From IMG/VR virus record IMGVR_UViG_2850756110_000006: DNA of 36,404 bases; one strand, 5' to 3'. The notes beneath the pieces were generated by a model that saw nothing but the letters and a program-made list of their open reading frames with translations, was not told where the DNA came from and searched no databases. Positions 5,686-30,077 of the stretch are shown in pieces. Position 1 is the first letter of the stretch; every line of letters begins with the position of its first letter. The translations under genes and the position numbers were made by a program. The stretch is from a virus (Duplodnaviria > Heunggongvirae > Uroviricota > Caudoviricetes).

Positions 5686-6876
5686 TTAATTGCTGTTAAC
5701 CGAGGTGACCAGATTTGCCAGGTATTTATCGGTGATACGCTGGCGCAGGGTCAGGTTTTCAAGAGGAGGCACCGGGGTATAGTCGTAGTCGATATACAGT
5801 TTTCCGGCCTTGAGGGTTTCCGCATCGTTGGATTCTTCGCTAAACCAGCAGGTCGCATCCACGATATAGCCGTTTGTTTTCAGCTCACGGAATTTGGCAT
5901 TGATGCCGTCAACGATGTCACGAATCAGCGTTGCGGTGATGGGCTTGTCCACCGCCCACATGTGCGCCTCAGCCATCGTGTCGGCCAGTACCTGTGCGGT
6001 GCGGGTGTAGTTTTCAAAGAGGAACAGCGGGTCATCAGAGCAGGTACGGTTACCCCAGAAGCGGAAACCGTCACGGCGAATCAGTGTTGTGACGCCTGAC
6101 TCGTTAAGCAGGTCAGCATCGGTGCCGGACTCCTGCAAATCCCAGAATACAGATGCGCTGATGCCGGTAACACCGTTCACCCCGACGTTGGACAGCGTTT
6201 TATGCCAGCCCTGCTCCTGGTCGATTTTGGCACGCAGACCCAGCGCACGGGCGGTAGCATACGCGGTGGCGGTGGTACTGGTGACCGTATCCCATGCGAG
6301 GAAATCCGGCCAGATGACCATCAGCTCACGCTGGCTGAAATTCTGGCGGTAAGCTTTCACCTCGGAAATGGTTTTACAGCCCCATGCGCTGATATACCCG
6401 AAAGCGCGCAACTTCTGACAGACTGATGCCAGTGCAACAGCCACCTCTTTGGTATCCAGTCCCGGTACGCCGAGAATACGCGGTTTAACACCGGTTACCG
6501 ACTCCGCCGCCAGCAGGGCTTTCAGTCCGGTGTACTGACCGTTTTCGTCGGTGGTGCCGATGATATTGGAAACGGTCTGCGCGAGTTTCGTTTCTTCGTC
6601 GTCGCCGGTGCCGTCTTCCACGCGCACAACAACGGTGACCGGTTTTGACTGGTCAGCGATGGCCTGCAACGATGCCGCCAGCGTGCCTTTTTTACCGGCC
6701 TTTGCAATTGCGCTCTGCACATTGGTAATCAGCACCGGTTTATTGAGGGGGAAGGTTTCCGCATCCGCATCGCTGGCCGTGCAGACCATGCCGACAATGG
6801 CGGTGGATACGGTTGAAATGACGCGGGTGCCGTCGTTAATCTCCAGCACCTGCACGCCGTGATGATAGTCACTCAT
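5686..6876 (-). CDS. FI: Tail sheath protein FI (396 aa)
   Basis: Matches P2 gpFI in sequence and length. Confidence 0.95.
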   Translation of the reverse strand: MSDYHHGVQVLEINDGTRVISTVSTAIVGMVCTASDADAETFPLNKPVLITNVQSAIAKAGKKGTLAASLQAIADQSKPVTVVVRVEDGTGDDEETKLAQTVSNIIGTTDENGQYTGLKALLAAESVTGVKPRILGVPGLDTKEVAVALASVCQKLRAFGYISAWGCKTISEVKAYRQNFSQRELMVIWPDFLAWDTVTSTTATAYATARALGLRAKIDQEQGWHKTLSNVGVNGVTGISASVFWDLQESGTDADLLNESGVTTLIRRDGFRFWGNRTCSDDPLFLFENYTRTAQVLADTMAEAHMWAVDKPITATLIRDIVDGINAKFRELKTNGYIVDATCWFSEESNDAETLKAGKLYIDYDYTPVPPLENLTLRQRITDKYLANLVTSVNSN

Positions 6877-6986: not shown

Positions 6987-6997
6987 TGGATTTGCCC

Positions 6998-7903
6998 CTA
7001 TATTTCCAGACATCTGTTATCACTTAACCCATTACAAGCCCGCTGCCGCAGATATTCCCGTGGCGAGCGATAACCCAGCGCACTATGCGGATGCCATTCG
7101 TTATAATGCTCGAACGCCTCTGCAAGGTTCTTTGCTGCCGTTAACCCGTCTGGTTTGGGCATGATACTGATGTAGTCACGCTTTATCGTTTTCACGAAGC
7201 TCTCTGCTATTCCGTTACTCTCCGGACTCCGCACCGCCGTGTTCTTCGGTTCAAGTCCCAACATCCGGGCGAACTGGCGTGTTTCATTAGCCCGGTAGCA
7301 TGAACCATTATCCGTCAGCCACTCCACTGGAGACGACGGAAGATCGTTGCCGAAGCGGCGTTCCACCGCTCCCAGCATGACGTCCTGTACTGTTTCACTG
7401 TTGAAGCCGCCGGTAGTCACCGCCCAGTGCAGTGCCTCACGATCACAGCAGTCCAGCGCGAACGTGACACGCAGTCTCTCTCCGTTATCACAGCAGAACT
7501 CGAACCCGTCAGAGCACCATCGCTGATTGCTTTCTTTCACGGCCACTCTGCCTGTATGTGCCCGTTTCGATGGCGGTACAGCAGGTTTTCGCTCAAGCAA
7601 CAGCGCATTCTGGCGCATGATCCGGTAAACACGTTTGGCATTGATCGCAGGCATACCATCAAGTTCTGCCTGTCTGCGAAGCAGCGCCCATACCCGACGA
7701 TAACCATACGTGGGCAGCTCTCCGATAACATGGTGTATACGGAGAAGCACATCCGTATCATCAGTGTGACGACTGCGGCGGCCATCCATCCAGTCATCGG
7801 TTCGTCTGAGAATGACGTGCAACTGCGCACGCGACACCCGGAGACAACGGCTGACTAAGCTTACTCCCCATCCCCGGGCAATAAGGGCGCGTGCGCTATC
7901 CAC
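6998..7903 (-). CDS. insD: IS2 transposase OrfB (InsD, 301 aa)
   Basis: [34 protein letters not shown]... matches IS2 InsD; integrase-like core. Confidence 0.9.
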
Positions 7904-8226
7904 TTTTTTGCCCGTCCATATTCAACGGCTTCTTTGAGGAGTTCATTTTCCATCGTTTTCTTGCCGAGCAGGCGCTGGAGTTCTTTAATCTGCTTCATGG
8001 CGGCAGCAAGTTCAGAGGCAGGAACAACCTGTTCTCCGGCGGCCACAGCAGTAAGACTTCCTTCCTGGTATTGCTTACGCCAGAGAAATAACTGGCTGGC
8101 TGCTACACCATGTTGCCGGGCAACGAGGGAGACCGTCATCCCCGGTTCAAAGCTCTGCTGAACAATTGCGATCTTTTCCTGTGTGGTACGCCGTCTGCGT
8201 TTCTCCGGCCCTAAGACATCAATCAT
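7861..8226 (-). CDS. insC: IS2 OrfA (InsC, 121 aa); an A6G slippery site at + coordinates 7904-7910 would fuse it to InsD
   Basis: [41 protein letters not shown]... matches IS2 InsC; CAAAAAAG on the minus strand just upstream of the insD ATG. Confidence 0.9.
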
Positions 8227-8399
8227 CTGTACTCCAATGACTAGTCTAAAAACTAGTATTAAGACTATCACTTATTTAAGTGATACTGGTTGTCTGGAGA
8301 TTCAGGGGGCCAGTCTAACGGGCAATTCGCCCGCCTGTCCTAGTTTGTACTCACTCATTTTCCGACTGACAATTTACATAGCCAAAACGCTATCAAATC

Positions 8400-8433
8400 T
8401 GACAGTCTGCTTTGAGCGAAAAGCAGACTGTCA
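8400..8433. repeat. Perfect palindrome (14-bp stem, 6-nt loop), motif copy A of a three-member family
   Basis: TGACAGTCTGCTTT-GAGCGA-AAAGCAGACTGTCA read directly; no adjacent T-run. Confidence 0.7.
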
Positions 8434-8548
8434 CGCGTTGAAGTTAATTGTATTACTTAGATAAACACTATCATTTTCCTGACGTTAAGTTGTATCTTTG
8501 ATAGGATTAAAAAACGTATAGATAGCTTATGCTACTGAGGGAATAAAA

Positions 8549-9358
8549 ATGACGAAAATTAGTGAACGATGGAAGCACAATGGCATTACTGAAGGTTATT
8601 GCAATATTTGTGGGAAATATGGCTTGCTCACAAAAGATCATGTTCCTCCAAAGTGCGCCATAACCTTAGGCCCTGTTTTGCAGAAAACAGTTAGCGAATT
8701 TTTTGGTATTCAGGAACCAGTTAAACCATTAAATGCTAAAAATGGCTCTTATTTCAGAACCATTTGCAGCCACTGTAACAATAAGGTATTAGGTGGGCTC
8801 GATGTTGCAATTGAAAATGTAACAAAGTCCTTTAAAGAACAGTTAAGTCGATATATGAATGGTATGAATGTATATCCATTCATTAGAATACCTTTTGATA
8901 GCATATCTTTCACTAAGGCTATGATTGGGCACGTGCTATCAGCAACTTCAGTTGAAGATTGTAAAAAAGAACCCGTAGATAGCCCCTTCTATACACCTTT
9001 AAAGGATTATGTTTTGGGTAAAAATTCAAGTTTTGAGGAAACTCATGATATTTACTACTGGTTTTACCCACACAGAATGCACATATCCGCTCAAAGTGTA
9101 GCATTTATGAACGAAGGACATGTGGCATTTATTTGTGCTTTACATTTTTTTCCTATCGGTTTTATTATCACAATGAAAAATGAAGGAACATACCCTGCCC
9201 ACTCTACAAAATTAGAACTTGAAGATAAATTCCTTACATTTAATATGACCTCTATAAATTATGAGTATACGACATTTCCATTTGTAAATCTTAAGGGAAA
9301 CCAAATGTATGCGATAAGCAACGGTCATACTTGTGTGAGTTATCCAATAATTAAGTGA
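8549..9358 (+). CDS. AT-rich accessory protein (269 aa) with N-terminal HNH/His-Me-finger-like motif (CxxC...DHVPP...CSHCNNK) and an unrecognised C-terminal domain
   Basis: Intact ORF with GAGGGA SD 7 nt before the ATG; C18-x2-C21, D30-H31, C-x2-C-N-N-K spacing resembles HNH nucleases; base composition far more AT-rich than flanking phage genes. Confidence 0.75.
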   Translation: MTKISERWKHNGITEGYCNICGKYGLLTKDHVPPKCAITLGPVLQKTVSEFFGIQEPVKPLNAKNGSYFRTICSHCNNKVLGGLDVAIENVTKSFKEQLSRYMNGMNVYPFIRIPFDSISFTKAMIGHVLSATSVEDCKKEPVDSPFYTPLKDYVLGKNSSFEETHDIYYWFYPHRMHISAQSVAFMNEGHVAFICALHFFPIGFIITMKNEGTYPAHSTKLELEDKFLTFNMTSINYEYTTFPFVNLKGNQMYAISNGHTCVSYPIIK

Positions 9359-9412
9359 CGGCTAAATCATACAATCTACGCATGTTCACTTTCTACATAT
9401 ACCATCTATAAT

Positions 9413-9437
9413 GTCCGCTGTTGGCACAAAGCAGACG
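9413..9437. repeat. Imperfect palindrome, motif copy B, between the convergent 269-aa and 425-aa genes
   Basis: GTCCGCTGTT-GGCAC-AAAGCAGACG, related to copies A and C. Confidence 0.55.
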
Positions 9438-9498
9438 CCCACTCTCACGCGAATGCTTTGCCCTTGACTTGCCAACAACCGTATCGCTTGCTCCGCAA

Positions 9499-10776
9499 CT
9501 ATGGTTTTTTATTAGAATCTTCGCCACTAAATAAATTATAATAAATTGATTTTATTAGATATCTGTCAGAATCTATATGGTCAGCACGAGTAGCATGCTC
9601 TAATGTTTCAAATGCTAGGGTTTGTGCGGCTTCAGCAAAAATTCCAGGCCAACCCTTACTCAGCATCGACAGTCCTTTAAGGACCCTTATCTGAATTTCC
9701 CTCATACTGGCACCATCGCGCGCAACAGGTGAGAAAAAGTCTTCAAGTAGATCGTTATTCTGAAGTGGTGCAACATGTACAGAAGGATATTTCACTTCTA
9801 TTTCATCAGATTTATTCTGCGCGTAAGCGGAAAGTATACGTACACCTCTGCCAATGACATCAATGGCGGTTCCAGGATCGTTCACTGCGGGGGAAAGGGC
9901 TCGGCAGGCTATTTCGGCCATGACGCTAAGACAAAATCGGGGGTCCTGAGCAAATGAACGTACATCCGAGACAATAATCGTCTCAAGTAAATCGGTGCTG
10001 ATTGATGACTCCTGGCCCTGACTCAGGTACAAAACTGGCGTGGACGGATGTATGAAACTGCCCGGCTGCGCCACGAGGTATACATGACGGGGATCATTGG
10101 TCAGCAGCTTGCTGAGTTTCACCATATCAACATATTCAACATAGCCAATCTTTTTCGGATAAACTGCAACCGTTCCTTTCGGCTGTTCATTGTTCTCAAG
10201 CCATGGATATCCGCCGAGACAGGGATTTCTTGCTCTCGCAATAAATGTTTCGATGGCCGCCTGTTCTACTTTTGCCGTTGTCTCACCAACCCTCCCCAGA
10301 GAGGTCAAATGCTGTATCCAGCGAAGCAATGTGATGAGGATTAAGGCAATGACAACCAGTGTTACAATGAATAAAATGACTCTCCCCCTTTCTCCATAAG
10401 CTCCCATATTGAGGGCAATAATCCCTACCAGACTGAAGAGAAAAGAACCGATGAAGGTGGCCAGTACATTTTGTGTGGTGACGTCTTCAACAACTAAACG
10501 AGTAGCTCTGGGAGTCACATTAGTAGTGGCTGAACCGTAGGCTGTGACCATGATGCTCAGCGAAAATGTGGTCACTGCCAGCATACTCGATGCCAGTATG
10601 TTCAGAATGTTATCGACTGCTTCCGCACCAACCTTCACGGAAACCGACTCAGGTATCATTGATTTAAAAAGAATTGATAAAAGGGCCGTTATTATTGCGA
10701 CAATTGCGAATAACGTTGCCCTGAACCATAGTTTTTTAAATGTCTGCTTCAGCATCCATTTCCAGCGTGAAATCAT
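9499..10776 (-). CDS. Membrane protein of unknown function (about 425 aa): four predicted N-terminal TM helices plus a roughly 270-aa soluble C-terminal domain; possibly DUF2254-like
   Basis: Intact ORF; start chosen at the second ATG (10776), which has a GAGGGA SD, the track start at 10791 does not; hydrophobic segments ATLFAIVAIITALLSILF, ILASSMLAVTTFSLSIMV, VLATFIGSFLFSLVGIIAL, VILFIVTLVVIALILITLL; family assignment from memory only. Confidence 0.7.
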   Translation of the reverse strand: MISRWKWMLKQTFKKLWFRATLFAIVAIITALLSILFKSMIPESVSVKVGAEAVDNILNILASSMLAVTTFSLSIMVTAYGSATTNVTPRATRLVVEDVTTQNVLATFIGSFLFSLVGIIALNMGAYGERGRVILFIVTLVVIALILITLLRWIQHLTSLGRVGETTAKVEQAAIETFIARARNPCLGGYPWLENNEQPKGTVAVYPKKIGYVEYVDMVKLSKLLTNDPRHVYLVAQPGSFIHPSTPVLYLSQGQESSISTDLLETIIVSDVRSFAQDPRFCLSVMAEIACRALSPAVNDPGTAIDVIGRGVRILSAYAQNKSDEIEVKYPSVHVAPLQNNDLLEDFFSPVARDGASMREIQIRVLKGLSMLSKGWPGIFAEAAQTLAFETLEHATRADHIDSDRYLIKSIYYNLFSGEDSNKKP

Positions 10777-10839
10777 TCTGCATTCCCTCATATTGCAGCC
10801 GGGATAAATAAATGCCGCCTCTGTGGCGGCATGTTGCTG

Positions 10840-12840
10840 TTAACGAACCAGATGCAGGAAGTGCAGGTGTTTTTCGTACTGGTCCAGTATGTCATTAATC
10901 AGCTGTTCCTGATTCCAGCCCATTACATCATAATTTTGGCCGCCCTCTTTGAGATAGACTTCAGCGCGATAATATCGATGTTGTTCACTCTGCTGCTCAT
11001 CATTATCCAGCGCAGCGAGCGCGAAGGTCGGTGAGTTATACCCGCGAAGCCTCACTTCATATATATAATTCAGCTCGTTGCCCAAATCGACTTCAAGGCG
11101 AATACGATCCTCGGCGGCGTCACTGATGTGGCTTATCGTTCCCTGCTTGTTAAGTTCCTCCTGAACCAGCGTCATGGCGGGTTGGATAATGTCGTCCATA
11201 AAACGTTTCACAAGAGAGCGCTTCGGCAAATACGCGATATTGCGTAACCTTCTCTGCCAGGGAATTGGGTTACGTGCAGCCGTAGGAGCAATAGTCGCCA
11301 TGCTAAGGCTTTCACGCTTGGTCAAATCCCGACGCAGGGCTTTTAACAGTCCGTATATGGATATTAATAAGATAACTGAGAAGGGCAATGCACTCGCTAT
11401 CGTTACGGTTTGCAACGCACTCAGCCCCCTGCGATCAGCAGGGCAATAGCAACAACGCCCATGAGCAATGCCCAGAAAATTCGCTGCCAGACGGGCGTGT
11501 TTGCCACCCCACCTGATGCCAGAGTATCCACAACCATTGCCCCGAATCAGCAGACGTTACAAAGAAGACGATGACCATCGCCATTGCAATGAATGACAGC
11601 ACGGAAGAGAACGGGAAATGCTCCAGGAAATTAAACAGGGCAAGCGCAACATCCTGCTGAACGGTATTGGCGAGGTCAGTGGCGCCCTGGTTCATGATGA
11701 GATAGATGGCGCTGTTTCCAAACACCGTCATCCACATGAGCGTAAAGCCGGCGGGAACAAACAACACGCCAGTCACGAACTCACGAATTGTCCTGCCGCG
11801 GGAAACGCGTGCAATGAACATACCTACAAACGGCGACCATGAAAGCCACCATCCCCAGTATAATAATGTCCAGCCCCCAGCCAGTTGCTCGACTTGGGTT
11901 CATACGCGTAAAGGTTGAACGTTTTACTCACCAGTTCCGACAGATAACCACCCGTATTTTCCACAAATGACTTCAGCAGAAGCACAGTGGGACCCAGGCA
12001 CAAGACCAGCGCCAGGAGCAACACCGCCAGGCCCAGATTAAGCTCAGACAGGATGCGTATTCCCTTGTCCAGGCCGGACACCACCGAAATCGTCGCTAAC
12101 CCCGTGATGACCACGATCAAAATGACCTGTACCGTTTCATTGATGGGCACGCCGAAAAGATGGTTCAAACCGGCATTCACCTGCAATACACCGTAACCCA
12201 GCGATGTTGCAACGCCAAAGACAGTGCCTATCACGGCGAAGATATCAACCGCGTGGCCTATAGGCCCGTAAATGCGATCGCCGATAATGGGATAGAGCGC
12301 AGAACGCAGCGTTAAAGGCAGACCGTGACGGTAACTGAAAAAGGCCAGAATCAGCGCCACGATGGCATAAATTGCCCATGCGTGCAGACCCCAGTGGAAG
12401 AACGTCAGGCGCATGGCTTCCTTCGCTGCCGCAACGGTCTCTGGAGTGCCGACAGGTGGCGAAAGATAATGCATCACAGGTTCGGCAACGCCAAAGAACA
12501 TCAGGCCGATCCCCATCCCTGCCGAAAAAAGCATCGCGAACCAGGAGTGGTAGCTGAAATCAGGCTGCGCATGGTCTGGGCCCAGCTTTATATCACCGTA
12601 ACGTGAGAGTCCAAGGAACGTGACGCTCAGTAAAATCAGGGCCACAGCAAGTATGTAGAACCAGCTGGCATTCGTGAAGATTTGTTGCTGAAGTAGTTTA
12701 AAATTTTTGTCGGCGACATCCGGGAATACGGCGGCAAAGGCGACAAGAAGGAAAATTAGCAAAGCAGATGTAAAGAATACCGCTTTGTTAACCTGGCTTG
12801 TAGACTTCTTTGGGGTTGTATCATTTTCACTCATAATCAT
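10840..12840 (-). pseudogene. BCCT-family (BetT-like) betaine/choline transporter gene broken by at least three frameshifts
   Basis: Fragments 11824-12840, 11435-11821 and 10840-11415 carry consecutive BCCT segments, including [32 protein letters not shown] recovered only by switching frame near 11880; further shifts near 11510 and 11425. Confidence 0.8.
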
Positions 12841-13155: not shown

Positions 13156-13683
13156 TTATTGCGGCATTTCCGGCCATTCAGGATTTGCAGGATCCACACG
13201 ACTGACCAGAACGCTGTAGCGTTCCCATGCTTCCAGTCGGCTGCGCTCCTCATCTGTTGCCATATTCAGCCTGACAGCGCGCTCCAGCGGCAAAATCACG
13301 GATTCAGCTTCGGAAAGTAAAGTTGCCTTTTGTGATTCTGCCAGTTGCTGCTGTTCGTCTGCCGTATAAATCCGCTTAATCACGGCACCATCCTTAAACA
13401 TCCATTTACCTGAGTCATCAGCACGTCGGTTGGCGGTAATATCAGGAACCTCGACAACGCTAAAACCTTCAGGGTTAAGCGTTGAAGCATCTCTGGTGAT
13501 GCCGACAATTATATTATTCTCGTCGTAAACAATCTTTATCGTGTCTTCCTGAAAATTACTTACTTCCTCATACCAGTTTTTTCCGTCTTCAGACCATAAC
13601 CAGATAACATCAAAATTTTTTGTCAGTTGATATTGGGCAACAGTTTTGGGATTACCCGCAGTAATATTTTTTAAATGCTGCAT
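13156..13683 (-). CDS. G: Tail fibre assembly protein G (175 aa)
   Basis: Matches P2 gpG in length and sequence. Confidence 0.9.
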
Positions 13684-13686
13684 AAA

Positions 13687-15777
13687 TTACACCTGTGCGA
13701 CGTTATACCATGTGCCATTAATGTATTTTTGTATTGGTCTGAATACTGCCGGATCATCGCCATCAACTTCGCCGACAATGCCAAGCCCTGTAATTACATG
13801 GCCTGATTTCTCATACATCACGCCTTTTTGCATGGTCTGAACAACACGCGTACCCAGGCGAACATCTTTCACATAGCGGGAATCAAAATTTCCGTAATCT
13901 GATGGGTTAACACGTCCAGTAACACTCAGGCCATGCCCCATTGACACTCCGCCATTGGCGTTATTGATAGTCAGCGGTCTTAAACCGTTCCATGTTCCAA
14001 ATTTATCGCCAGAGGCCGTCAGCATTAAATATGTGCTGCCGCCATCATTCCTGATAAAGAATCCATAATTGCCATAAGCAATGCGCAGACCATTAGCACT
14101 GAGCGATGTAATTTCACCTCTTGAACGAAGACCATAAGCAGAGCTGAGTGATAATTCTTCCTGAGCATCAGTATTACCTGTCGCCCAGCGAATTACCCCG
14201 CCCTGTACTGTTTCATGCCAGATAGTGTCTCCTTCTCCACCACGAAACTTTCTGAGATATTTTTTGCCGCCTCTGGTGCCGGAACATAAGGCCGTAGACA
14301 TATAGGCATTCTGGCTTCCACTATCCTGATTAATAGTTCCAGACATAGAATCGCCGTAACGGTTCCAGTCACGCCGCCAGCCAGGAGCATAGTTGTCCCC
14401 GTGGTTAATATAAGTAAATTGCGCGCTTGTAGCGCCCCCACCGCTTGATGTTGTTGGTGTGGTAATACGAATAGTCATTGCAGACTTTATGCCCATTACC
14501 TCAATAACAGCGCCAGCAAGATGAATATTGCCACAGCCAGTATCCGTAATGATTTTGTTATTTGCATATGACCAGGAGCCTTTGCACATCCAGTACGGAT
14601 GATTAAATGCACCACGGGAATCCAGCCATTCAATAAACTGAGCGGTTGTCCAGTTTCCGGCTTCAGTGCTCAAAGCGCCGCTATAAGCACGACAGGCACC
14701 GATATTTTTCGTGAAGGTATCCTTTCCCGGAATATCCGCACCGTTCTGATCTTTCTGAAGACGTTTTTCAGCATTGTCATAGGCAGACTTCACCGCCTTT
14801 GGCGTTGCAGCCTGCGTTTCAGAATCACTGTTGGTGGCGCTACTGAGCTGGACAAGACCTTTTCGCGCCGTGGTGGCATCCTGTGCAGTGTATTTCCCGT
14901 TAGCAAGGTCATATGCTGTCTTAACCGCCTTTGGCGTTGCCGCAAGCGTTTCAGAATCGCTGTTGGTGGCGCTACTGAGCTGAACAAGGCCTTTTCGCGC
15001 TGTTGTGGCATCCTGTGCAGTGTATTTCCCGTTAGCAAGGTCATATGCTGCCTTTACCGCTTTCGGCGTTGCGGCGAGCGTTTCAGACGTGCTGTTAGTC
15101 GCACTACTGAGCTGAACAAGGCCTTTTCGCGCGGTGGTAGCGTCCTGTGCGGTATATTTCCCGTTAGCAAGGTCATATGCGGCCTTAACCGCTTTCGGAG
15201 TTGCAGCCAGTGTTTCAGACGTGCTGTTGGTCGCACTGCTTAACTGAGTAAAACCTTTTGCGGTCAGCGAGGCGTCAGGGTGACGTCGTGACTGTTCATG
15301 TTCTGCAATTTTGTCATCAACGTAATCCTGCGTTGCCATCACCGTTGTGGTGTCAATGGTCAGCTCCACTGAGGCCACACTGCTGACGATGATGACCATG
15401 CGGCAGGTCTGCGAACGCCCTGAGCCTTCGGCAAGGGCTGGCTTATAACTTTCGGCCATGTTCGCCACGGCAATTAGCGTTCCCGCATCATCGTACAGGC
15501 CAAGTTCACGCATCCAGAAACCGCCCACCTCCGGCGGAATAACCAGCTCTGCGATAATATAATTACTGTTTCGTTTGTCCTGGCTGATTTTGTTCAGCGC
15601 ATGTCGCCAGACTTCATGGATAAGCCCGGTCTGTCCGGCATCCGGGACAGGCAATTTACCACCGCCATCCCCGACGGCCATCGTGGTAATGTTGACCTTC
15701 CGCCCTCCCGGTGCGGTTGCCGCTGCCAGCTTTGCTGCACCGGCAGTGGTGATAACGGTTTTGAATTTTGTGCTCAT
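13687..15777 (-). CDS. H: Tail fibre protein H (696 aa) with internal tandem repeats and a variable C-terminal receptor-binding region
   Basis: Conserved P2 H N-terminus MSTKFKTVITTAGAAKLAAA...; about four 44-aa repeats (QLSSATNSxSETLAATPKAVKAAYDLANGKYTAQDATTARKGLV). Confidence 0.9.
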   Translation of the reverse strand: MSTKFKTVITTAGAAKLAAATAPGGRKVNITTMAVGDGGGKLPVPDAGQTGLIHEVWRHALNKISQDKRNSNYIIAELVIPPEVGGFWMRELGLYDDAGTLIAVANMAESYKPALAEGSGRSQTCRMVIIVSSVASVELTIDTTTVMATQDYVDDKIAEHEQSRRHPDASLTAKGFTQLSSATNSTSETLAATPKAVKAAYDLANGKYTAQDATTARKGLVQLSSATNSTSETLAATPKAVKAAYDLANGKYTAQDATTARKGLVQLSSATNSDSETLAATPKAVKTAYDLANGKYTAQDATTARKGLVQLSSATNSDSETQAATPKAVKSAYDNAEKRLQKDQNGADIPGKDTFTKNIGACRAYSGALSTEAGNWTTAQFIEWLDSRGAFNHPYWMCKGSWSYANNKIITDTGCGNIHLAGAVIEVMGIKSAMTIRITTPTTSSGGGATSAQFTYINHGDNYAPGWRRDWNRYGDSMSGTINQDSGSQNAYMSTALCSGTRGGKKYLRKFRGGEGDTIWHETVQGGVIRWATGNTDAQEELSLSSAYGLRSRGEITSLSANGLRIAYGNYGFFIRNDGGSTYLMLTASGDKFGTWNGLRPLTINNANGGVSMGHGLSVTGRVNPSDYGNFDSRYVKDVRLGTRVVQTMQKGVMYEKSGHVITGLGIVGEVDGDDPAVFRPIQKYINGTWYNVAQV
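14773..15261. repeat. Tandem 132-bp coding repeats (about 3.7 copies) inside H; coordinates approximate
   Basis: 44-aa period in the H protein; repetitive shadow ORFs on other frames (14599-15243, 14790-15044). Confidence 0.8.
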
Positions 15778-15787
15778 TATTCCTCAC

Positions 15788-16318
15788 TTATCCGGGGTAA
15801 ACCGTAATTACATCGCCGTCGTAAGCCACACCACCGGCGAACAGGTAGCCGGGAATATCCCGGGTAATGTTCAGGCCAATAAGATGACGGCTTGCAGGTT
15901 TGGCATCAGCAATAAGCCGTTCCATTTCCTGATACATTGCCTCTGTGATGCCGCTTTCCAGTACGCCAATATCAAGCCGGAAGGTGCCTGGCGGGTCACT
16001 GGTTTCCCACCACTCCGTCACGTTGATGAGATAGCCCAGCGGCTCCACCACACGCCGGATTGCACCTATAGTGCCTTTATGACAGTGGATGAAATAGGCA
16101 TCGCGAATAACGGCGCGTTTGGTCGCTTCCGGCCACTTTTCATCCCACCTGTCGACCGAAAACGCCCACGCCAGCCACGGCAGCAGATTTGCCGGACAGG
16201 TATCCGGGTTCCACAGATCACGAATACTGACCGGCGTTTTTTCAATTTCCGCACAGGCTTTTGCGGCGGCGACTTCAAGCGGTGATGAGCCGGTCGGCAG
16301 CAGGCGCGAATCACTCAT
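15788..16318 (-). CDS. I: Baseplate assembly protein I (176 aa)
   Basis: Matches P2 gpI. Confidence 0.95.
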   Translation of the reverse strand: MSDSRLLPTGSSPLEVAAAKACAEIEKTPVSIRDLWNPDTCPANLLPWLAWAFSVDRWDEKWPEATKRAVIRDAYFIHCHKGTIGAIRRVVEPLGYLINVTEWWETSDPPGTFRLDIGVLESGITEAMYQEMERLIADAKPASRHLIGLNITRDIPGYLFAGGVAYDGDVITVYPG

Positions 16319-17219
16319 CCGAGCCTCCGGTCACGACGCGGTATTCGGTACAGAAAGACGCCTGCGTACTGTTGAGCACAATGTCGGCCAGTGGTGCAGC
16401 CAGTTCGACACGCTGCACGCCTTCCACATGCAAAGCGGCATAAATGGCAGACAGACGGATGTCGCGCCCCAGCCGGTGCTGTGCCGTGATGTACGCTTCC
16501 AGTTTTTTCACGGCGGCAGCGCGGATGGGTTCGCTTTCGGGACCAGGGTAAAGGTAAAGCGTGGCGTTTATCTGGTATTCAACGATGGCGGCAGACTGCA
16601 CGGTCACGCGGTCGGCTACCGGCCTGACGTCCTCGCCATTAAGGGCGTTACGCACCACCGCCAGCAGGTCTTCGGATGCGACACCGTTATTTTCACGTGA
16701 CAGCACAGAGATGGTGACGCAGGCCGGAGAAGGACTGGTGACAGAGATATCTGCGACACGCCCGTCGGCACTTCGACCATGATACTGATAGGCCCCCACC
16801 GACCCGGCGACGCTTAAACCTTCAAACGCCTGCTGAATACGCAGACGATAATCGGTGTCAGATTCCATCTCGGCCGGTGTCGGCGGGAGGGTCGAATCAT
16901 CTGCCGGGGTGATAATCAGGCGCGCGGTGTTGTAATTGGCACCAATCACATCAAGGTCATTACCGGCAGCACAGGCCAGCATCACCGCCCGTGCGGCCTC
17001 ATTCACACGCTGACGCCAGATAAGCTCACGATAAGCATTTTCCTCCAGCAGTTTGACGAGAGGCTCAGATTCAAGCGTCAGGGTACGGGCGACCGCCTCC
17101 TGCTGGTCTTCCGGGTAAAGGGAAATCAGTGTCGCCTTGCGTTCGGCAAGAATGGTTTCAAAGTCCAGCTCCTCGACCACATCCGGTGCGGGTAGCTGGT
17201 TCAGGTCGATAATCGGCAT
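16311..17219 (-). CDS. J: Baseplate assembly protein J (302 aa)
   Basis: Matches P2 gpJ. Confidence 0.95.
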   Translation of the reverse strand: MPIIDLNQLPAPDVVEELDFETILAERKATLISLYPEDQQEAVARTLTLESEPLVKLLEENAYRELIWRQRVNEAARAVMLACAAGNDLDVIGANYNTARLIITPADDSTLPPTPAEMESDTDYRLRIQQAFEGLSVAGSVGAYQYHGRSADGRVADISVTSPSPACVTISVLSRENNGVASEDLLAVVRNALNGEDVRPVADRVTVQSAAIVEYQINATLYLYPGPESEPIRAAAVKKLEAYITAQHRLGRDIRLSAIYAALHVEGVQRVELAAPLADIVLNSTQASFCTEYRVVTGGSDE

Positions 17220-17223
17220 GGTT

Positions 17224-17571
17224 TCAACTCACAGGGATGGTTAACGAAAGTGGCTGGCCGGTGTCGTTGTGCTGACCGGTTAACGTGACCGTCATTCGCC
17301 CGTCAAAACTGCGCGCCGTGGTGACGGATGACAGGGTGACGCGGGGTTCCCATTTCAGCACTGCCATGTAACAGGCGACCTTAATCTGCAACTCAAGCGC
17401 CGGGGTCTGCGGCTGGTCAATCATTGATGCCAGCAACGAGCCGTAATCACGACGCATCACCCGTGAGCCGACCGGTGTGCGCAGGATATCGCCGATACTC
17501 TGGCTGATATGCTCAAGGTCAGTGACCGTCAGGCCATCACTGCGATTCATTCCGAGATAACGCGCTGTCAT
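17224..17571 (-). CDS. W: Baseplate protein W (115 aa)
   Basis: Matches P2 gpW. Confidence 0.95.
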   Translation of the reverse strand: MTARYLGMNRSDGLTVTDLEHISQSIGDILRTPVGSRVMRRDYGSLLASMIDQPQTPALELQIKVACYMAVLKWEPRVTLSSVTTARSFDGRMTVTLTGQHNDTGQPLSLTIPVS

Positions 17572-18197
17572 AGAGGACTCCCGGTTGTGCCGCCGCTGTC
17601 GCCGGGGTGTTTATGGGTATGCAGTACCTTCCCGTTTGATGAAAGTTCACCGCCGGTGTGTTCAATGTTGCCGCGCATCGTCCCGCCCTTCTGCACTTCC
17701 AGCGTGCCGGTAATCAGCTTGTTGGTGCAGACCACCTCCGGTGTGTCCAGGGTGACGCGGGTTGATGCTTTCACCATGACCACCGGCACCGTGGCAGTAA
17801 CAGAATCAGAAGCCGTCACGCTGGCCGTTTTAATTCCGCTTACCGTGAGTGCACTGGTTTCAGGTTCATACTCAATCACCGCCCCGTCAGGGAAACGGAT
17901 ATGCAGGGCATCCGCCGACGCCGACGGCGCGGGGTTATCGCCGGAATAAATCCCCGGCAGAACGAACGCCGTGTCGAGTTCACCGCCCACGGCCAGAATC
18001 AGCACCTGTTCCCCCACGGAAGGTGCCCACCATGTGCGCGAACGACCGGCGCGATGGGTCAGCCACTGAAGCCAGTCGGTGCACATGCCGCCGGTCTGCA
18101 CACGGCAGCGACCGGCATTAAGGTCGGTTTCGACGATAATGCCAGTGCGAATCATATTGCGTATAAAGCGAAGAATTTCATTGTATTGTGCATTCAT
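17568..18197 (-). CDS. V: Baseplate spike protein V (about 210 aa); N-terminal ~15 residues differ from P2
   Basis: From ...RNMIRTGIIVETDLNAGRCRVQTGG onward matches P2 gpV; ATG at 18197, the track ORF starts at an upstream TTG. Confidence 0.9.
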   Translation of the reverse strand: MNAQYNEILRFIRNMIRTGIIVETDLNAGRCRVQTGGMCTDWLQWLTHRAGRSRTWWAPSVGEQVLILAVGGELDTAFVLPGIYSGDNPAPSASADALHIRFPDGAVIEYEPETSALTVSGIKTASVTASDSVTATVPVVMVKASTRVTLDTPEVVCTNKLITGTLEVQKGGTMRGNIEHTGGELSSNGKVLHTHKHPGDSGGTTGSPL

Positions 18198-18283
18198 TCG
18201 ATAATAATGATTCTGTACAATCTCGAAGTAAATCACACCACGATTTCTGGTGCACAGAACAACAAGGGACAACAAAATCCATT

Positions 18284-18949
18284 ATGAGTACTTACTTTTT
18301 CTCGTCAGAAACAATGAAAGAATTGTTCAAAGATTATCTGGTCTTTTTGAACACGCTGACTCCCGGCACAAACTTTGAATCAAGCAGAAACAAAATAATT
18401 GCTCAAGCAATAAACTTCATTTCCGAAAACCCTGAAGATTGGGACAAAAAATCCCAGTACAACATTGCTATGATTGGCGACACCTTTAAAAGTTTCTTAA
18501 GAGAAAAGGGAGAAGATAACAACAGCATCAACCTTATATTCACTTGCTTTTTTAGATTTATCATTGAACCAAGCATTCTCTCTCCGGAAATAGAGTCTCA
18601 CTTTTCACCACTAAGAACCATCAAGGATTTTGCTCTGTATAACTATAATGAATTCGATGAGCGGAGCAGAGCACAGATAGACTTTTCTCTTAGAGAACTG
18701 CCATTAGCAATGGTTAAAGAAGTTTTAAGCTCCAGCAATGTTGACACATATAAAAAATACATTGATAGTTTAAACGAAGGGCGTCAATTTTTCGAAAAGT
18801 GCGACTCCTTCTTAAAGGAGCAACATGCCAAAATAGAGTCAATCAAAGAGTCATTAAAAGGGTATGAGGTCGCATTTAATTTTGTTGGATTGTTTGAAGG
18901 CTTTAATTCACTTGGCAAAAAGAAAGTGAAATCATGCTATCAAGAATAA
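18284..18949 (+). CDS. Hypothetical protein (221 aa), first gene of an AT-rich cassette inserted between V and S
   Basis: Intact ORF with AAGGGA SD-like sequence upstream of the ATG at 18284; strongly AT-rich; no recognisable motif; the track start at 18188 lies inside V and is rejected. Confidence 0.65.
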   Translation: MSTYFFSSETMKELFKDYLVFLNTLTPGTNFESSRNKIIAQAINFISENPEDWDKKSQYNIAMIGDTFKSFLREKGEDNNSINLIFTCFFRFIIEPSILSPEIESHFSPLRTIKDFALYNYNEFDERSRAQIDFSLRELPLAMVKEVLSSSNVDTYKKYIDSLNEGRQFFEKCDSFLKEQHAKIESIKESLKGYEVAFNFVGLFEGFNSLGKKKVKSCYQE

Positions 18950-19353
18950 TTCTTATCATCTTGGCTATAATCATTCCCTCCCCGCTGATATACTATGGAA
19001 TGCATAAATTACCAGCTCTCGAAACGACAAATGCTGCCACATATTTTATGTCAGCACTACCTTTTGCATCAGTTACATTGATTTTCATGTATTACTTTAG
19101 AGTTGTACTGCTAAATCATATATCGTTACGAACTCAGATTATGCAAATAGAACTCAGAAAGAGCCTTTGTCAGTTCATTCAGAGTTATAGCGACTATTCC
19201 TCAGAGATAAGGAAAAACAATCCGGAAGCGCTTTCAAAATTCGAAGACGTAGTATTTTCAAACATCATGCTATCCGATGATAAGATACCATCTACATTTG
19301 ATGGCATTGAGCAAATAGCATCGTTAATCAATTCATTAAAAAATGGAAAGTAA
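18934..19353 (+). CDS. Small membrane protein (139 aa, two predicted N-terminal TM helices), overlapping the preceding gene by 16 nt
   Basis: ATG at 18934 overlaps the upstream stop at 18947-18949; hydrophobic MLSRIILIILAIIIPSPLIYYG and YFMSALPFASVTLIFMYYFRVVLL. Confidence 0.65.
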   Translation: MLSRIILIILAIIIPSPLIYYGMHKLPALETTNAATYFMSALPFASVTLIFMYYFRVVLLNHISLRTQIMQIELRKSLCQFIQSYSDYSSEIRKNNPEALSKFEDVVFSNIMLSDDKIPSTFDGIEQIASLINSLKNGK

Positions 19354-28647: not shown

Positions 28648-28668
28648 GCCGCCTGCGGGCGGCTTTTT
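28648..28668 (+). terminator. Rho-independent terminator after Q
   Basis: GCCGCC-TGC-GGGCGGC followed by TTTTT. Confidence 0.7.
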
Positions 28669-28811
28669 ACACCCCGTCATCACGCCCTCATACGCTCACC
28701 ACCGCACAAAACACCCCGCAGACACACCAACGGCCCCGGCGAACAATCTAAACGCCATCACGACGCGCTCAGACGCTGAAAAAATAAAATCAGCACCACC
28801 GCCAGCGCGCA

Positions 28812-28830
28812 GTGCTTTCCCCGCCTCGCC
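28812..28830. other. cos: cos site (19-nt cohesive-end sequence)
   Basis: GTGCTTTCCCCGCCTCGCC is the reverse complement of the recalled P2 cohesive end GGCGAGGCGGGGAAAGCAC. Confidence 0.75.
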
Positions 28831-29045
28831 CGCCCGCTTTATGGGTCGGTTTTAATGCAGGTGCACGAATACACCGGAGGCGCGCCGGCACTGGTGGCGC
28901 TCAGACGCAACAGGGGAGGAAAACGCATGCAATTGAATGCATTTCTAGGCACACCTAAAAATGAAAAAATGTTATGACAATTAATCATTTTAAACACACT
29001 GATTAAGGGTAGAATTCTCCTAGTAAAATCATAGAAAAACCGCTA

Positions 29046-29974
29046 TCAAACCAGGCTTTTGCCTTGCTTCATTTTTTTAGATGAGTCTAAAAATTTGAAA
29101 TTATCATTAGATGAAAATATTCTTTCTGCGGTATGCCGAATGACTGAAGTATTGAAGACCGCAGCCTGCTCCTCATTACAACTGAATACACCCTCATGAC
29201 CATCAAACTCGCCCGCCAAAAGAAGGTTTTTTGATACTGGGAACAAAACTAAAGTGTCTTTTACACCAAACCCGGGGAATAAGGGCCTCGTGCTAATTCA
29301 GGATTAGTCCACATTAAGCAAACTGGGTTATCTGAAGTTATAAATGACCCTTGCCCATCAGATATGGTCATAAGTGACCAGTTGCGTTGATGCAACAACT
29401 TGGTGATAACAGGTACACATTTCATTTCCATATCTATCATGAACTCTCTGATTACATTGATTTCGAAATTATCCCCATCCACAAAATTTTTAATTTTTTC
29501 GTAAGCGAGATCATATGGCAAAGACTCACCCATTTCTTTCTCATAAGCTAATTTGCAATCGTCCCAACGCTCAGCCGAACTAACTGAGGATTTCATGATA
29601 AACTTTGCTATTTGTTTCAATGGAGATGATAAATGTTCTCGCTGAGCAGGCGTACGTATTGCCAATAAGGAAATAAACTCCAGAATAACATCTTTGGTTT
29701 CGCCTGAAAACTCGCCCCCTCCTCAAGTTTTCTTAAATGAGTAGCGACACTGCCTTCAAACTCTGCAAGAGAACTCTCGAGATAGTTTGGGTCAACTCCA
29801 TCCAATTCTAATCGGTTGAAATCTCTAACCCCCCCCGACATTGCGAGTATTACTCTCAAAGGTTTTGCGCTCCTTTAAATCTATTACAGTTAATTTTGAT
29901 TTTTTCCCCCCATTACTTGTAAACCCTTTCAAATAACATTGGGATAAAAAATGATGATGCCTTGCAACACTCAT
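29046..29974 (-). pseudogene. AT-rich DUF4238-like gene at the tin/old position, split into four frame-shifted fragments
   Basis: N-terminus MSVARHHHFLSQCYLKGFTS resembles the DUF4238 HxxPQFYLKxF motif (from memory); frame breaks at a G8/C8 run (29829-29836), near 29617-29665 and near 29246-29261. Confidence 0.65.
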
Positions 29975-30077
29975 ACTCAGCTCCGTTATGGCTATAATCG
30001 CATAAATAATAAGCACTTATATTGCAATCATCTAGTTAAATACACAATATTTATGACTCCGAAATTTCATTAAATCA

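Follow-up and report, generated by a model that had tools for sequence, protein, structure and literature searches.

The window analyzed here, that is, the whole 36,404-nucleotide stretch of the IMG/VR virus record IMGVR_UViG_2850756110_000006, is a P2-like prophage of Escherichia coli. Between its tail sheath gene FI and its tail-fibre assembly gene G, and antisense to both, it carries an open reading frame (ORF, positions 8549-9358) for a 269-aa protein. An initial annotation, made from the letters alone, had described this protein as HNH-like at its N-terminus and as a possible nuclease-based defence effector. Judging from sequence and genomic context, we give a probability of about 0.5 to the proposal that the gene is a single-gene, mobile-element-borne defence nuclease. 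Its N-terminal part very probably adopts the HNH nuclease fold, an assignment that is well supported by conservation and profiles.

A conserved gene in the slot between FI and G

The ORF is intact and AT-rich, as initially described, and the strong Shine-Dalgarno sequence that had been noted in front of it was found (coordinates of all features are in Table 1). Its GC content is 34.9%, with 29.7% at third codon positions (GC3), compared to 56% in the adjacent sheath gene and 51% in the window. A word-indexed search retrieved 93 full-length homologues (E ≤ 1e-16), and an exhaustive profile search gave a family of 1,767 clusters at 50% identity (E ≤ 1e-3), 340 of them with E ≤ 1e-30. Nearly all of these clusters are 255-300 aa long and match from end to end, indicating a constant architecture of ~270 aa. 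For six orthologues, from phage pro147, Kluyvera, Erwinia, Enterobacter, Photorhabdus, and Rouxiella, the ratio of nonsynonymous to synonymous substitution rates (dN/dS, Nei-Gojobori) is 0.02-0.18, with similar values in the N- and C-terminal halves. Because of these homologues, clusters, and dN/dS values the ORF does not owe its existence to chance; it is a real gene under purifying selection.

Single-protein sequence searches against Pfam, NCBIfam, PADLOC, and PDB returned nothing significant, the PHROGs match is a family of unknown function, and no mention of WP_000161640 or phrog_21495 was found in the literature. Homologues in NCBI and UniRef are named 'chaperonin' or 'metal-binding protein'. 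The former name has no backing in Pfam, NCBIfam, or fold searches, and both look like propagated annotation errors.

The position of the gene recalls a known case. In reference P2 the FI/G slot holds fun(Z), which is antisense to FI and is annotated 'cloned gene blocks growth of T5; lysogenic conversion'. Phage pro147, which is P2-like and inducible, has a single sizeable gene between those for the sheath and tail-fibre assembly, namely a copy of the present gene with 94.8% identity.

The N-terminal HNH region

The initial annotation had listed CxxC, DHVPP, and CSHCNNK in this order within the N-terminus, and all three are present where it placed them, as C18-N-I-C21, D30-H31-V-P-P34, and C73-S-H-C76-N77-N-K79. 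The order CxxC...DH...CxxC-N is that of T4 endonuclease VII. We aligned 133 relatives with 20-40% identity and found eight invariant positions (C21, H31, C73, C76, N77, G127, W171, and P202), while C18, D30, P33, P34, G66, D85, and H128 are kept in at least 90% of the sequences. N65, the canonical middle Asn of HNH, is not conserved in the family. When the 133 relatives were scanned one by one, 65 matched HNH_5 (PF14279) at E ≤ 0.05 (best 1.9e-6) and six matched Endonuclease_7 (PF02945; best E 6.5e-4). The HNH-like N-terminus claimed at the outset is thus backed by both the conservation and the HNH_5 matches.

An AlphaFold2 (AF2) model was built from 48 sequences and scored 86.4 in the predicted local distance difference test (pLDDT) and 0.88 in predicted template modelling (pTM) for the whole protein. 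This structure, solely a prediction, has a β-strand at residues 15-17, a second at 24-32 that ends with D30-H31, a helix at 42-51 lying in an insertion of ~27 aa, a strand at 67-73, and a helix at 74-103. C18 and C21 precede strand 24-32, and C73 and C76 sit at a strand-helix junction, with the long helix opening with C73xxC76-N77, N77 in its first turn, and D85 further along it. The predicted layout fits a ββα-metal fold with a four-Cys zinc brace. The residues expected to be catalytic in an HNH nuclease are also in place in the model, D30-H31 at the end of strand 24-32 and N77 on the helix that follows.

Structural similarity to solved HNH nucleases is not significant. The full family profile had no match among PDB sequences, and a profile of the N-terminal domain had a sole match, the GVE2 HNH endonuclease, at a non-significant E value of 3.7. 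In the GVE2 alignment, CxxC-DH and CxxCNN line up motif to motif, with ~27 extra residues between the strands in the 269-aa protein. The fold comparison is consistent with the HNH assignment and falls short of proof.

The C-terminal region

The last ~190 residues had been described as matching nothing recognisable, and residues 105-269 are indeed without detectable relative. Mean identity to the query is 21% in the C-terminal half and 33% in the N-terminal half. The conserved C-terminal positions are mostly Gly, Pro, or aromatic (G127, W171, P202, and P244), and because H128 is the sole conserved polar residue, a second enzymatic site is unlikely. The C-terminal half is near-neutral (pI 6.2; family median 7.2), the N-terminal half basic (pI 9.2). 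By Pfam and fold searches we detected no SRA, PUA, EVE, YTH, or winged-helix reader in the C-terminal half and no DNA-binding module anywhere in the protein. The pTM is 0.88 for the whole protein and 0.60 for the isolated N-terminal domain; the higher value suggests a single body in which the two halves are packed together, with the C-terminal region against the long HNH helix of the model.

A one-gene cassette shared by three classes of mobile elements

The exact protein, WP_000161640.1, is encoded in P2-like prophages, in lambdoid prophages (most often), and on IncFII plasmids. The DNA that is 100% identical in the three contexts runs from palindrome to palindrome (~8414-9436, 1.0 kb) and holds only the HNH ORF, which bears out the earlier description of a single module between two palindromes. 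A 100%-identical cassette in different elements matches the reported behaviour of P2 defence cargo (PMC13586616). The gene is present in 141 of 5,426 complete E. coli genomes (~2.6%), at 120 chromosomal and 29 plasmid places, and 11,300 assembly blocks are indexed for the exact protein.

In lambdoid prophages the gene lies alone, antisense to its neighbours, between hokD/DUF968/RusA and DUF977/replisome-organiser genes. This slot is polymorphic: the boundary sequences that frame the HNH cassette in some strains, GTCCGCTTTGAGCGAA (left) and TAATGTCCGCTGTTGGCACAAAGCGGAC (right), enclose a 245-bp filler in strain A20 (L003 7990-8030 and 9000-9040; L050 1880-2200; L051 1660-2325). In other strains a gene for QueH (epoxyqueuosine reductase) is found between hokD and DUF977. 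From these sequences, the slot looks like a site of cassette exchange at conserved borders. The IncFII plasmid copies adjoin a small integrase and are accompanied by genes for a DUF2254 membrane protein and a betaine/carnitine/choline-type transporter (BCCT).

The copies of E. coli, Erwinia, Kluyvera, and phage pro147 share ~95 conserved nt next to the ATG on its upstream side, suggesting that the gene carries its own regulatory region. A candidate promoter, TGACG-17 nt-TAGGAT, can be read by eye in this upstream region; no consensus promoter and no intrinsic terminator were called around the gene.

The 9-mer AAAGCAGAC occurs at both cassette edges (left copy at 8420-8428), and in pro147-type copies the right-edge palindrome is a perfect 9-bp version. 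In the Erwinia aeris copy (L005, ~7853-7884), the upstream palindrome stands at the same distance from the ATG and GTCTGC/GCAGAC is changed to GGCAGC/GCTGCC. Because these changes are compensatory, they suggest that the hairpin itself is functional, possibly as an insulator/terminator or as a regulatory structure. In Kluyvera the upstream palindrome has degenerated, and in pro147 its place is taken by another GC hairpin. We considered the flanking palindromes as a family-wide mobility signal and dropped this idea, as they are present in close relatives only.

Relatives and their genomic contexts

The initial annotation had suggested looking for homologues with conserved neighbours; among 35 species-representative gammaproteobacterial genomes, no neighbour gene is conserved. 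The recurrent neighbours in these genomes are small serine recombinases/invertases (9 loci) and tyrosine integrases. Pairs of SMODS and SLATT genes (CBASS-like) are nearby in 5 loci, and one neighbour pair is an N6-methylase/ResIII set. In distant loci, the co-oriented upstream genes encode RES, GMC oxidoreductase, HsdS, LysR, and FMN-binding proteins; since these are mutually unrelated, the family appears to have no operon partner.

Besides the N6-methylase/ResIII pair, two single loci are informative. In Thiomicrorhabdus cannonii (L037, 5248-12264), a 29% identical relative follows a 524-aa ORF and a confirmed Methylase_S specificity gene (hsdS) and is itself followed by a 189-aa ORF and a 943-aa ORF, possibly hsdR. 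This would be a type I restriction-modification (R-M) operon context, and it resembles the embedded position known for other defence genes in such operons. In Pseudomonas koreensis (L023), a relative lies between a RES-domain gene and Septu PtuA, which is followed by a co-oriented 242-aa ORF (10539-11264) that overlaps the PtuA stop codon by one base and is likely PtuB. A bulk scan found PtuA matches in this locus and in three further neighbours not assigned to loci. A Septu-like partnership for the family was rejected, as PtuA was confirmed in just one of 10 individually scanned neighbour proteins (that of P. koreensis).

Family members are also present on 46 viral contigs of IMG/VR. Relatives with ~36% identity (L096, L097, L099-L102, and L106) lie between the portal and gpA genes of P2-like prophages, and Pfam matches confirmed the identity of the GPO, terminase, portal, and GPA genes around them. 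This portal/gpA position is known as the old/tin hotspot, for which defence systems have been demonstrated (PMC9122126). Both the FI/G and the portal/gpA positions are occupied, and the family was therefore captured independently by both variable slots of P2-like phages. Other viral relatives are found beside a lambda-type terminase and an EAL gene, in a nin region, and in a Mu-like head module. The genes adjacent to viral-contig members are on the same strand in 28 cases and on the opposite strand in 32.

A putative single-gene defence nuclease

We propose that the protein is a stand-alone nuclease, carried as one-gene cargo, that would most likely shield the lysogen, and with it the resident prophage or plasmid, from other phages that invade the cell or from foreign DNA. 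Since the gene has its own conserved upstream region and is antisense to the phage late genes, it would be transcribed from that region, presumably in the lysogen. D30 and N77 are predicted to hold the catalytic metal, with H31 activating water to cut DNA, while C18, C21, C73, and C76 would be the ligands of a structural zinc. Among the C-terminal 165 residues there is no conserved catalytic one, and this part would probably gate or target the nuclease. Host DNA would have to be spared with neither a methyltransferase nor an immunity protein, and because no gene for these or for an ATPase partner is conserved beside the family, self-sparing would have to be built into the protein. In the version that we prefer, the nuclease would be activated by a phage cue; in a second version, it would recognise a feature of foreign DNA, either a modification or a structure.

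The support for the defence effector of the initial annotation comes from genomic context and from nothing beyond it: the P2 fun(Z) slot, the portal/gpA hotspot, the type I R-M operon, and the CBASS-like and Septu islands. In addition, the HNH gene is intact although two other cargo genes of the window prophage, those for BCCT and DUF4238, are broken. Several observations weigh against this proposal. Context amounts to guilt by association, and cargo slots also hold non-defence genes, such as those for DUF2254 and BCCT here and for QueH in the lambdoid slot. A recognisable defence gene lies within two ORFs in only about one third of the genome loci, a fraction for which there is no control set, and some relatives share the orientation of the phage head or nin modules that contain them or are neighbours of terminase genes. 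The 269-aa protein itself scores poorly with HNH_5 (E = 0.29, 11.6 bits against a cutoff of 27.5). None of the families of PADLOC-DB 2.0.0, which include Rst_DUF4238, Septu PtuB, and PDC/HEC candidates, matched it at E ≤ 10, and it was not found in the main texts or supplementary files of Rousset 2022 and the DefensePredictor paper. Finally, the sensing step of the proposal is purely inferred. The family may already bear a name in catalogues newer than PADLOC-DB 2.0.0.

A wider version is tentative and seems to us slightly less than an even bet, namely that the whole family, with at least 1,700 clusters at 50% identity, is an unnamed single-protein immune family in which a novel α/β fold serves as infection sensor or specificity module for an endonuclease VII-type HNH. 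It is very improbable that the protein is an endonuclease VII-like enzyme acting on hairpin or cruciform DNA, for example the palindromes of its own cassette, which would link defence and movement; the sole backing for this version is the presence of palindromes at the cassette edges in close relatives.

Alternative explanations

The other reading offered by the initial annotation was a selfish, free-standing HNH homing endonuclease, which would cut a site in cassette-less relatives and let repair copy the cassette in. Such an enzyme would explain the spread between phages, and the HNH motif, the discrete 1-kb cassette with defined edges that is identical in three element types, the presence/absence polymorphism of the lambdoid hokD/DUF977 slot with its conserved boundaries, and one relative inside a Mu-like head-gene module all agree with it. 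However, the boundaries of the lambdoid slot also frame the filler of strain A20, and QueH occupies the slot in other strains; unrelated cargo in the same slot is in keeping with an exchange of cassettes by recombination more than with nuclease-driven insertion. The lack of a detected DNA-binding module and the near-neutral C-terminal half of unknown fold likewise argue against homing. Moreover, the family is not confined to phages, introns, or inteins, being common at many unrelated sites that include at least four phage slots, IncF plasmids, chromosomal islands, and an R-M operon. Homing endonuclease genes often decay, whereas both halves of this protein are under strong purifying selection across genera. 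Taken together, these observations leave homing as the weaker of the two readings of the initial annotation, and we consider it unlikely.

A function in the life cycle of the phage itself, as a terminase-associated packaging HNH or an endonuclease VII-like resolvase, is perhaps a little easier to envisage and is still improbable. Relatives L081-L088 have a large terminase gene of the lambda type as neighbour, head-morphogenesis genes flank L052 and L103 on both sides, and L085 is co-oriented in a nin region after DUF968; lambdoid nin regions are rich in His-Me-finger resolvases (PMC5714182). Nevertheless, the gene is accessory, as its frequency in E. coli shows, and neither reference P2 nor most of the P2-like and lambdoid phages have it. 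In E. coli, the phage genes flanking this gene all run opposite to it; the gene is also AT-rich, with a conserved upstream region of its own. Identical copies occur in elements whose packaging and replication systems are unrelated, as well as on plasmids, and the family extends to non-phage islands. The least probable of these alternatives, for which we see very little room, is a non-catalytic zinc-ribbon or 'metal-binding' protein with a structural or regulatory role and no nuclease activity. It would account for the database names, for the sub-threshold Pfam HNH scores of the 269-aa protein, for the non-significant similarity to solved HNH structures, and for the variable N65, but a purely structural ribbon would not need the invariant H31 and N77 or D30, kept in at least 90% of the 133 relatives. 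Furthermore, half of the relatives match HNH_5, and there is no chaperonin-family signal in Pfam or NCBIfam.

Comparison with known systems

The defence nuclease that we propose shares features with several known systems and is equivalent to none of them. P2 Fun(Z) (NP_046777) occupies the same FI/G slot, is antisense to the late operon, and is non-essential cargo with a T5-blocking annotation; it is, however, an unrelated protein of 528 aa (gene 15675-17261), so that the slot is common and the family is not. A tblastn search of a phage collection with the 269-aa protein gave no P2 match. Rst_DUF4238, also P2-hotspot cargo, is likewise a single protein of ~280-310 aa (PMC9122126). A relationship with DUF4238 was rejected, since hhalign of the 133-sequence profile against an intact DUF4238 protein gave a probability of 0.1%; there was also no Pfam or PADLOC match to DUF4238.

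McrA, the type IV modification-dependent HNH enzyme of the e14 prophage, is similarly a prophage-borne single HNH protein with no methylase, yet its domain order is reversed, the HNH being N-terminal in the 269-aa protein, and the non-catalytic domain differs. A type IV enzyme would have a modified-base reader fused to the nuclease, and no SRA, PUA, EVE, YTH, winged-helix, or iEndoIII reader was found here. It would also have no cognate methyltransferase or immunity gene, and neither is a conserved neighbour of the family in the 35 genomes or the viral contigs, the pro147 gene being alone in its slot. END nucleases (PLD plus iEndoIII) were considered and are a different family. The enzymes T4 endonuclease VII and Hpy99I (PF02945) and the GVE2-type HNH (PF14279/PF01844) have neither the ~27-residue insertion with helix 42-51 nor the 165-residue C-terminal region.

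Septu PtuB and other multi-gene HNH effectors also use HNH as a killing or cutting module, and one relative adjoins PtuA; unlike them, the present family has no conserved ATPase or other partner beside it, and there was no PADLOC PtuB match. The free-standing homing endonucleases I-HmuI and T4 Mob proteins share the HNH motif and presence or absence as a discrete phage cassette. They differ in that the 269-aa protein has no NUMOD, HTH, AP2, or zinc-finger module and its family is widespread outside phages. For HNH toxin-immunity or toxin-antitoxin modules of the colicin or polymorphic-toxin kind, a conserved adjacent immunity or antitoxin gene was sought and not found. Among the bacterial groups in a His-Me-finger census of 2017 is an uncharacterised one with HNH_5 only (group 8, PMC5714182), which may or may not be the present family.

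Surroundings in the window prophage

The genes D, U, T, E/E', FII, and FI (sheath, 5686-6876) lie on the minus strand, and beyond the FI/G slot follow G (13156-13683), H, I, J, and the remaining virion genes. The slot contains, in this order, an IS2-type insertion sequence (IS) element, the HNH ORF, a DUF2254 gene, and a fragmented BCCT gene. The IS2-type element lies upstream of both the genes that it separates, ~110 nt from the FI start and ~230 nt from the HNH ORF. Strain S10 has the same arrangement without the IS and with BCCT intact as a single 1,998-nt gene. We also observed that the element splits a GC-rich hairpin, GGCGGGCAATTCGCCCGCC, at a site that is uninterrupted in strain S10; on the minus strand, GGCGGGCAATTCGCCCGCC followed by TTTTCTGT looks like a terminator ahead of the FI promoter region. 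The trio of HNH, DUF2254, and BCCT genes, with identical proteins, is also found on IncFII plasmids.

Two further variable positions of the prophage were noted. In the portal/gpA hotspot (28650-30075) lies a DUF4238 gene broken up into short ORFs; the copy in CP062901, with 99.7% identity and a length difference of 2 nt, codes for an intact protein of 309 aa. The fragmentation could reflect either prophage decay or assembly indels. The DUF4238 family protects against T7 (PMC9122126). A third insert of low GC content (~40%, 18188-19353) lies between the baseplate V and tail-completion S genes and contains two plus-strand ORFs (253 and 139 aa) that are antisense to the phage genes and have no Pfam match. 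Strain S10 has a different hypothetical gene of 347 aa in this slot. The two ORFs are possible further cargo or defence candidates.

Table 1 Features of the FI/G slot and of the HNH gene in the window.
Feature	Position	Strand	Description
IS2-type element	~6987-8318	minus (ORFs)	HTH_Tnp_1 and rve transposase ORFs confirmed
Perfect palindrome TGACAGTCTGCTTT-GAGCGA-AAAGCAGACTGTCA	8400-8433		14-bp stem, -23.3 kcal/mol; left cassette edge
Upstream region travelling with the gene	8434-8548	plus	Presumed own promoter and 5' untranslated region
Shine-Dalgarno GAGGG	8537-8541	plus	Ends 7 nt before the ATG
Complete coding sequence	8549-9358	plus	ATG start, 269 aa plus stop; identical to WP_000161640.1 ('hypothetical protein')
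Zn-braced HNH/His-Me-finger region, residues ~14-103	8588-8857	plus	Predicted from AF2 secondary structure, invariant residues, HNH_5/Endonuclease_7 matches of relatives, and GVE2 alignment
First CxxC (C18, C21)	8600-8611	plus	Predicted structural-zinc ligands; C21 invariant, C18 in at least 90% of 133 sequences
DHVPP (D30-P34)	8636-8650	plus	H31 predicted general base, D30 predicted metal ligand
CSHCN (C73, C76, N77)	8765-8779	plus	Second zinc pair, then predicted catalytic-metal Asn
C-terminal α/β region, residues 105-269	8861-9355	plus	No detectable relative
Imperfect palindromes GTCCGCTGT-TGGCAC-AAAGCAGAC and CAAAGCAGACGC...GCGAATGCTTTG	9413-9460 (9413-9436, 9427-9460)		Right cassette edge
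DUF2254 membrane-protein gene	9499-10791		Intact
BCCT gene	10840-12840		Broken: 10840-11415, 11435-11821, 11824-12840

Significance

The variable slots of P2-like prophages are proven anti-phage reservoirs in which many genes are unnamed, and both HNH effectors and unnamed hotspot genes as such are already expected by specialists. The gene belongs to an uncharacterised, widespread family in which a catalytic module of known type is joined to an unknown fold and which resides in proven defence hotspots; this large family has no Pfam model and moves between three classes of mobile elements. The gene also offers a clean test case, being one small ORF with a mutable predicted catalytic triad (D30, H31, and N77). 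Whatever the outcome, the names 'chaperonin' and 'metal-binding protein' lack support and ought to give way to others. If the gene had no role in defence, residence in a hotspot alone would prove a weak predictor. If it does defend its host, it would represent a compact nuclease system whose fold for regulation or specificity is new, and it would show what replaces fun(Z) in many P2-like phages.

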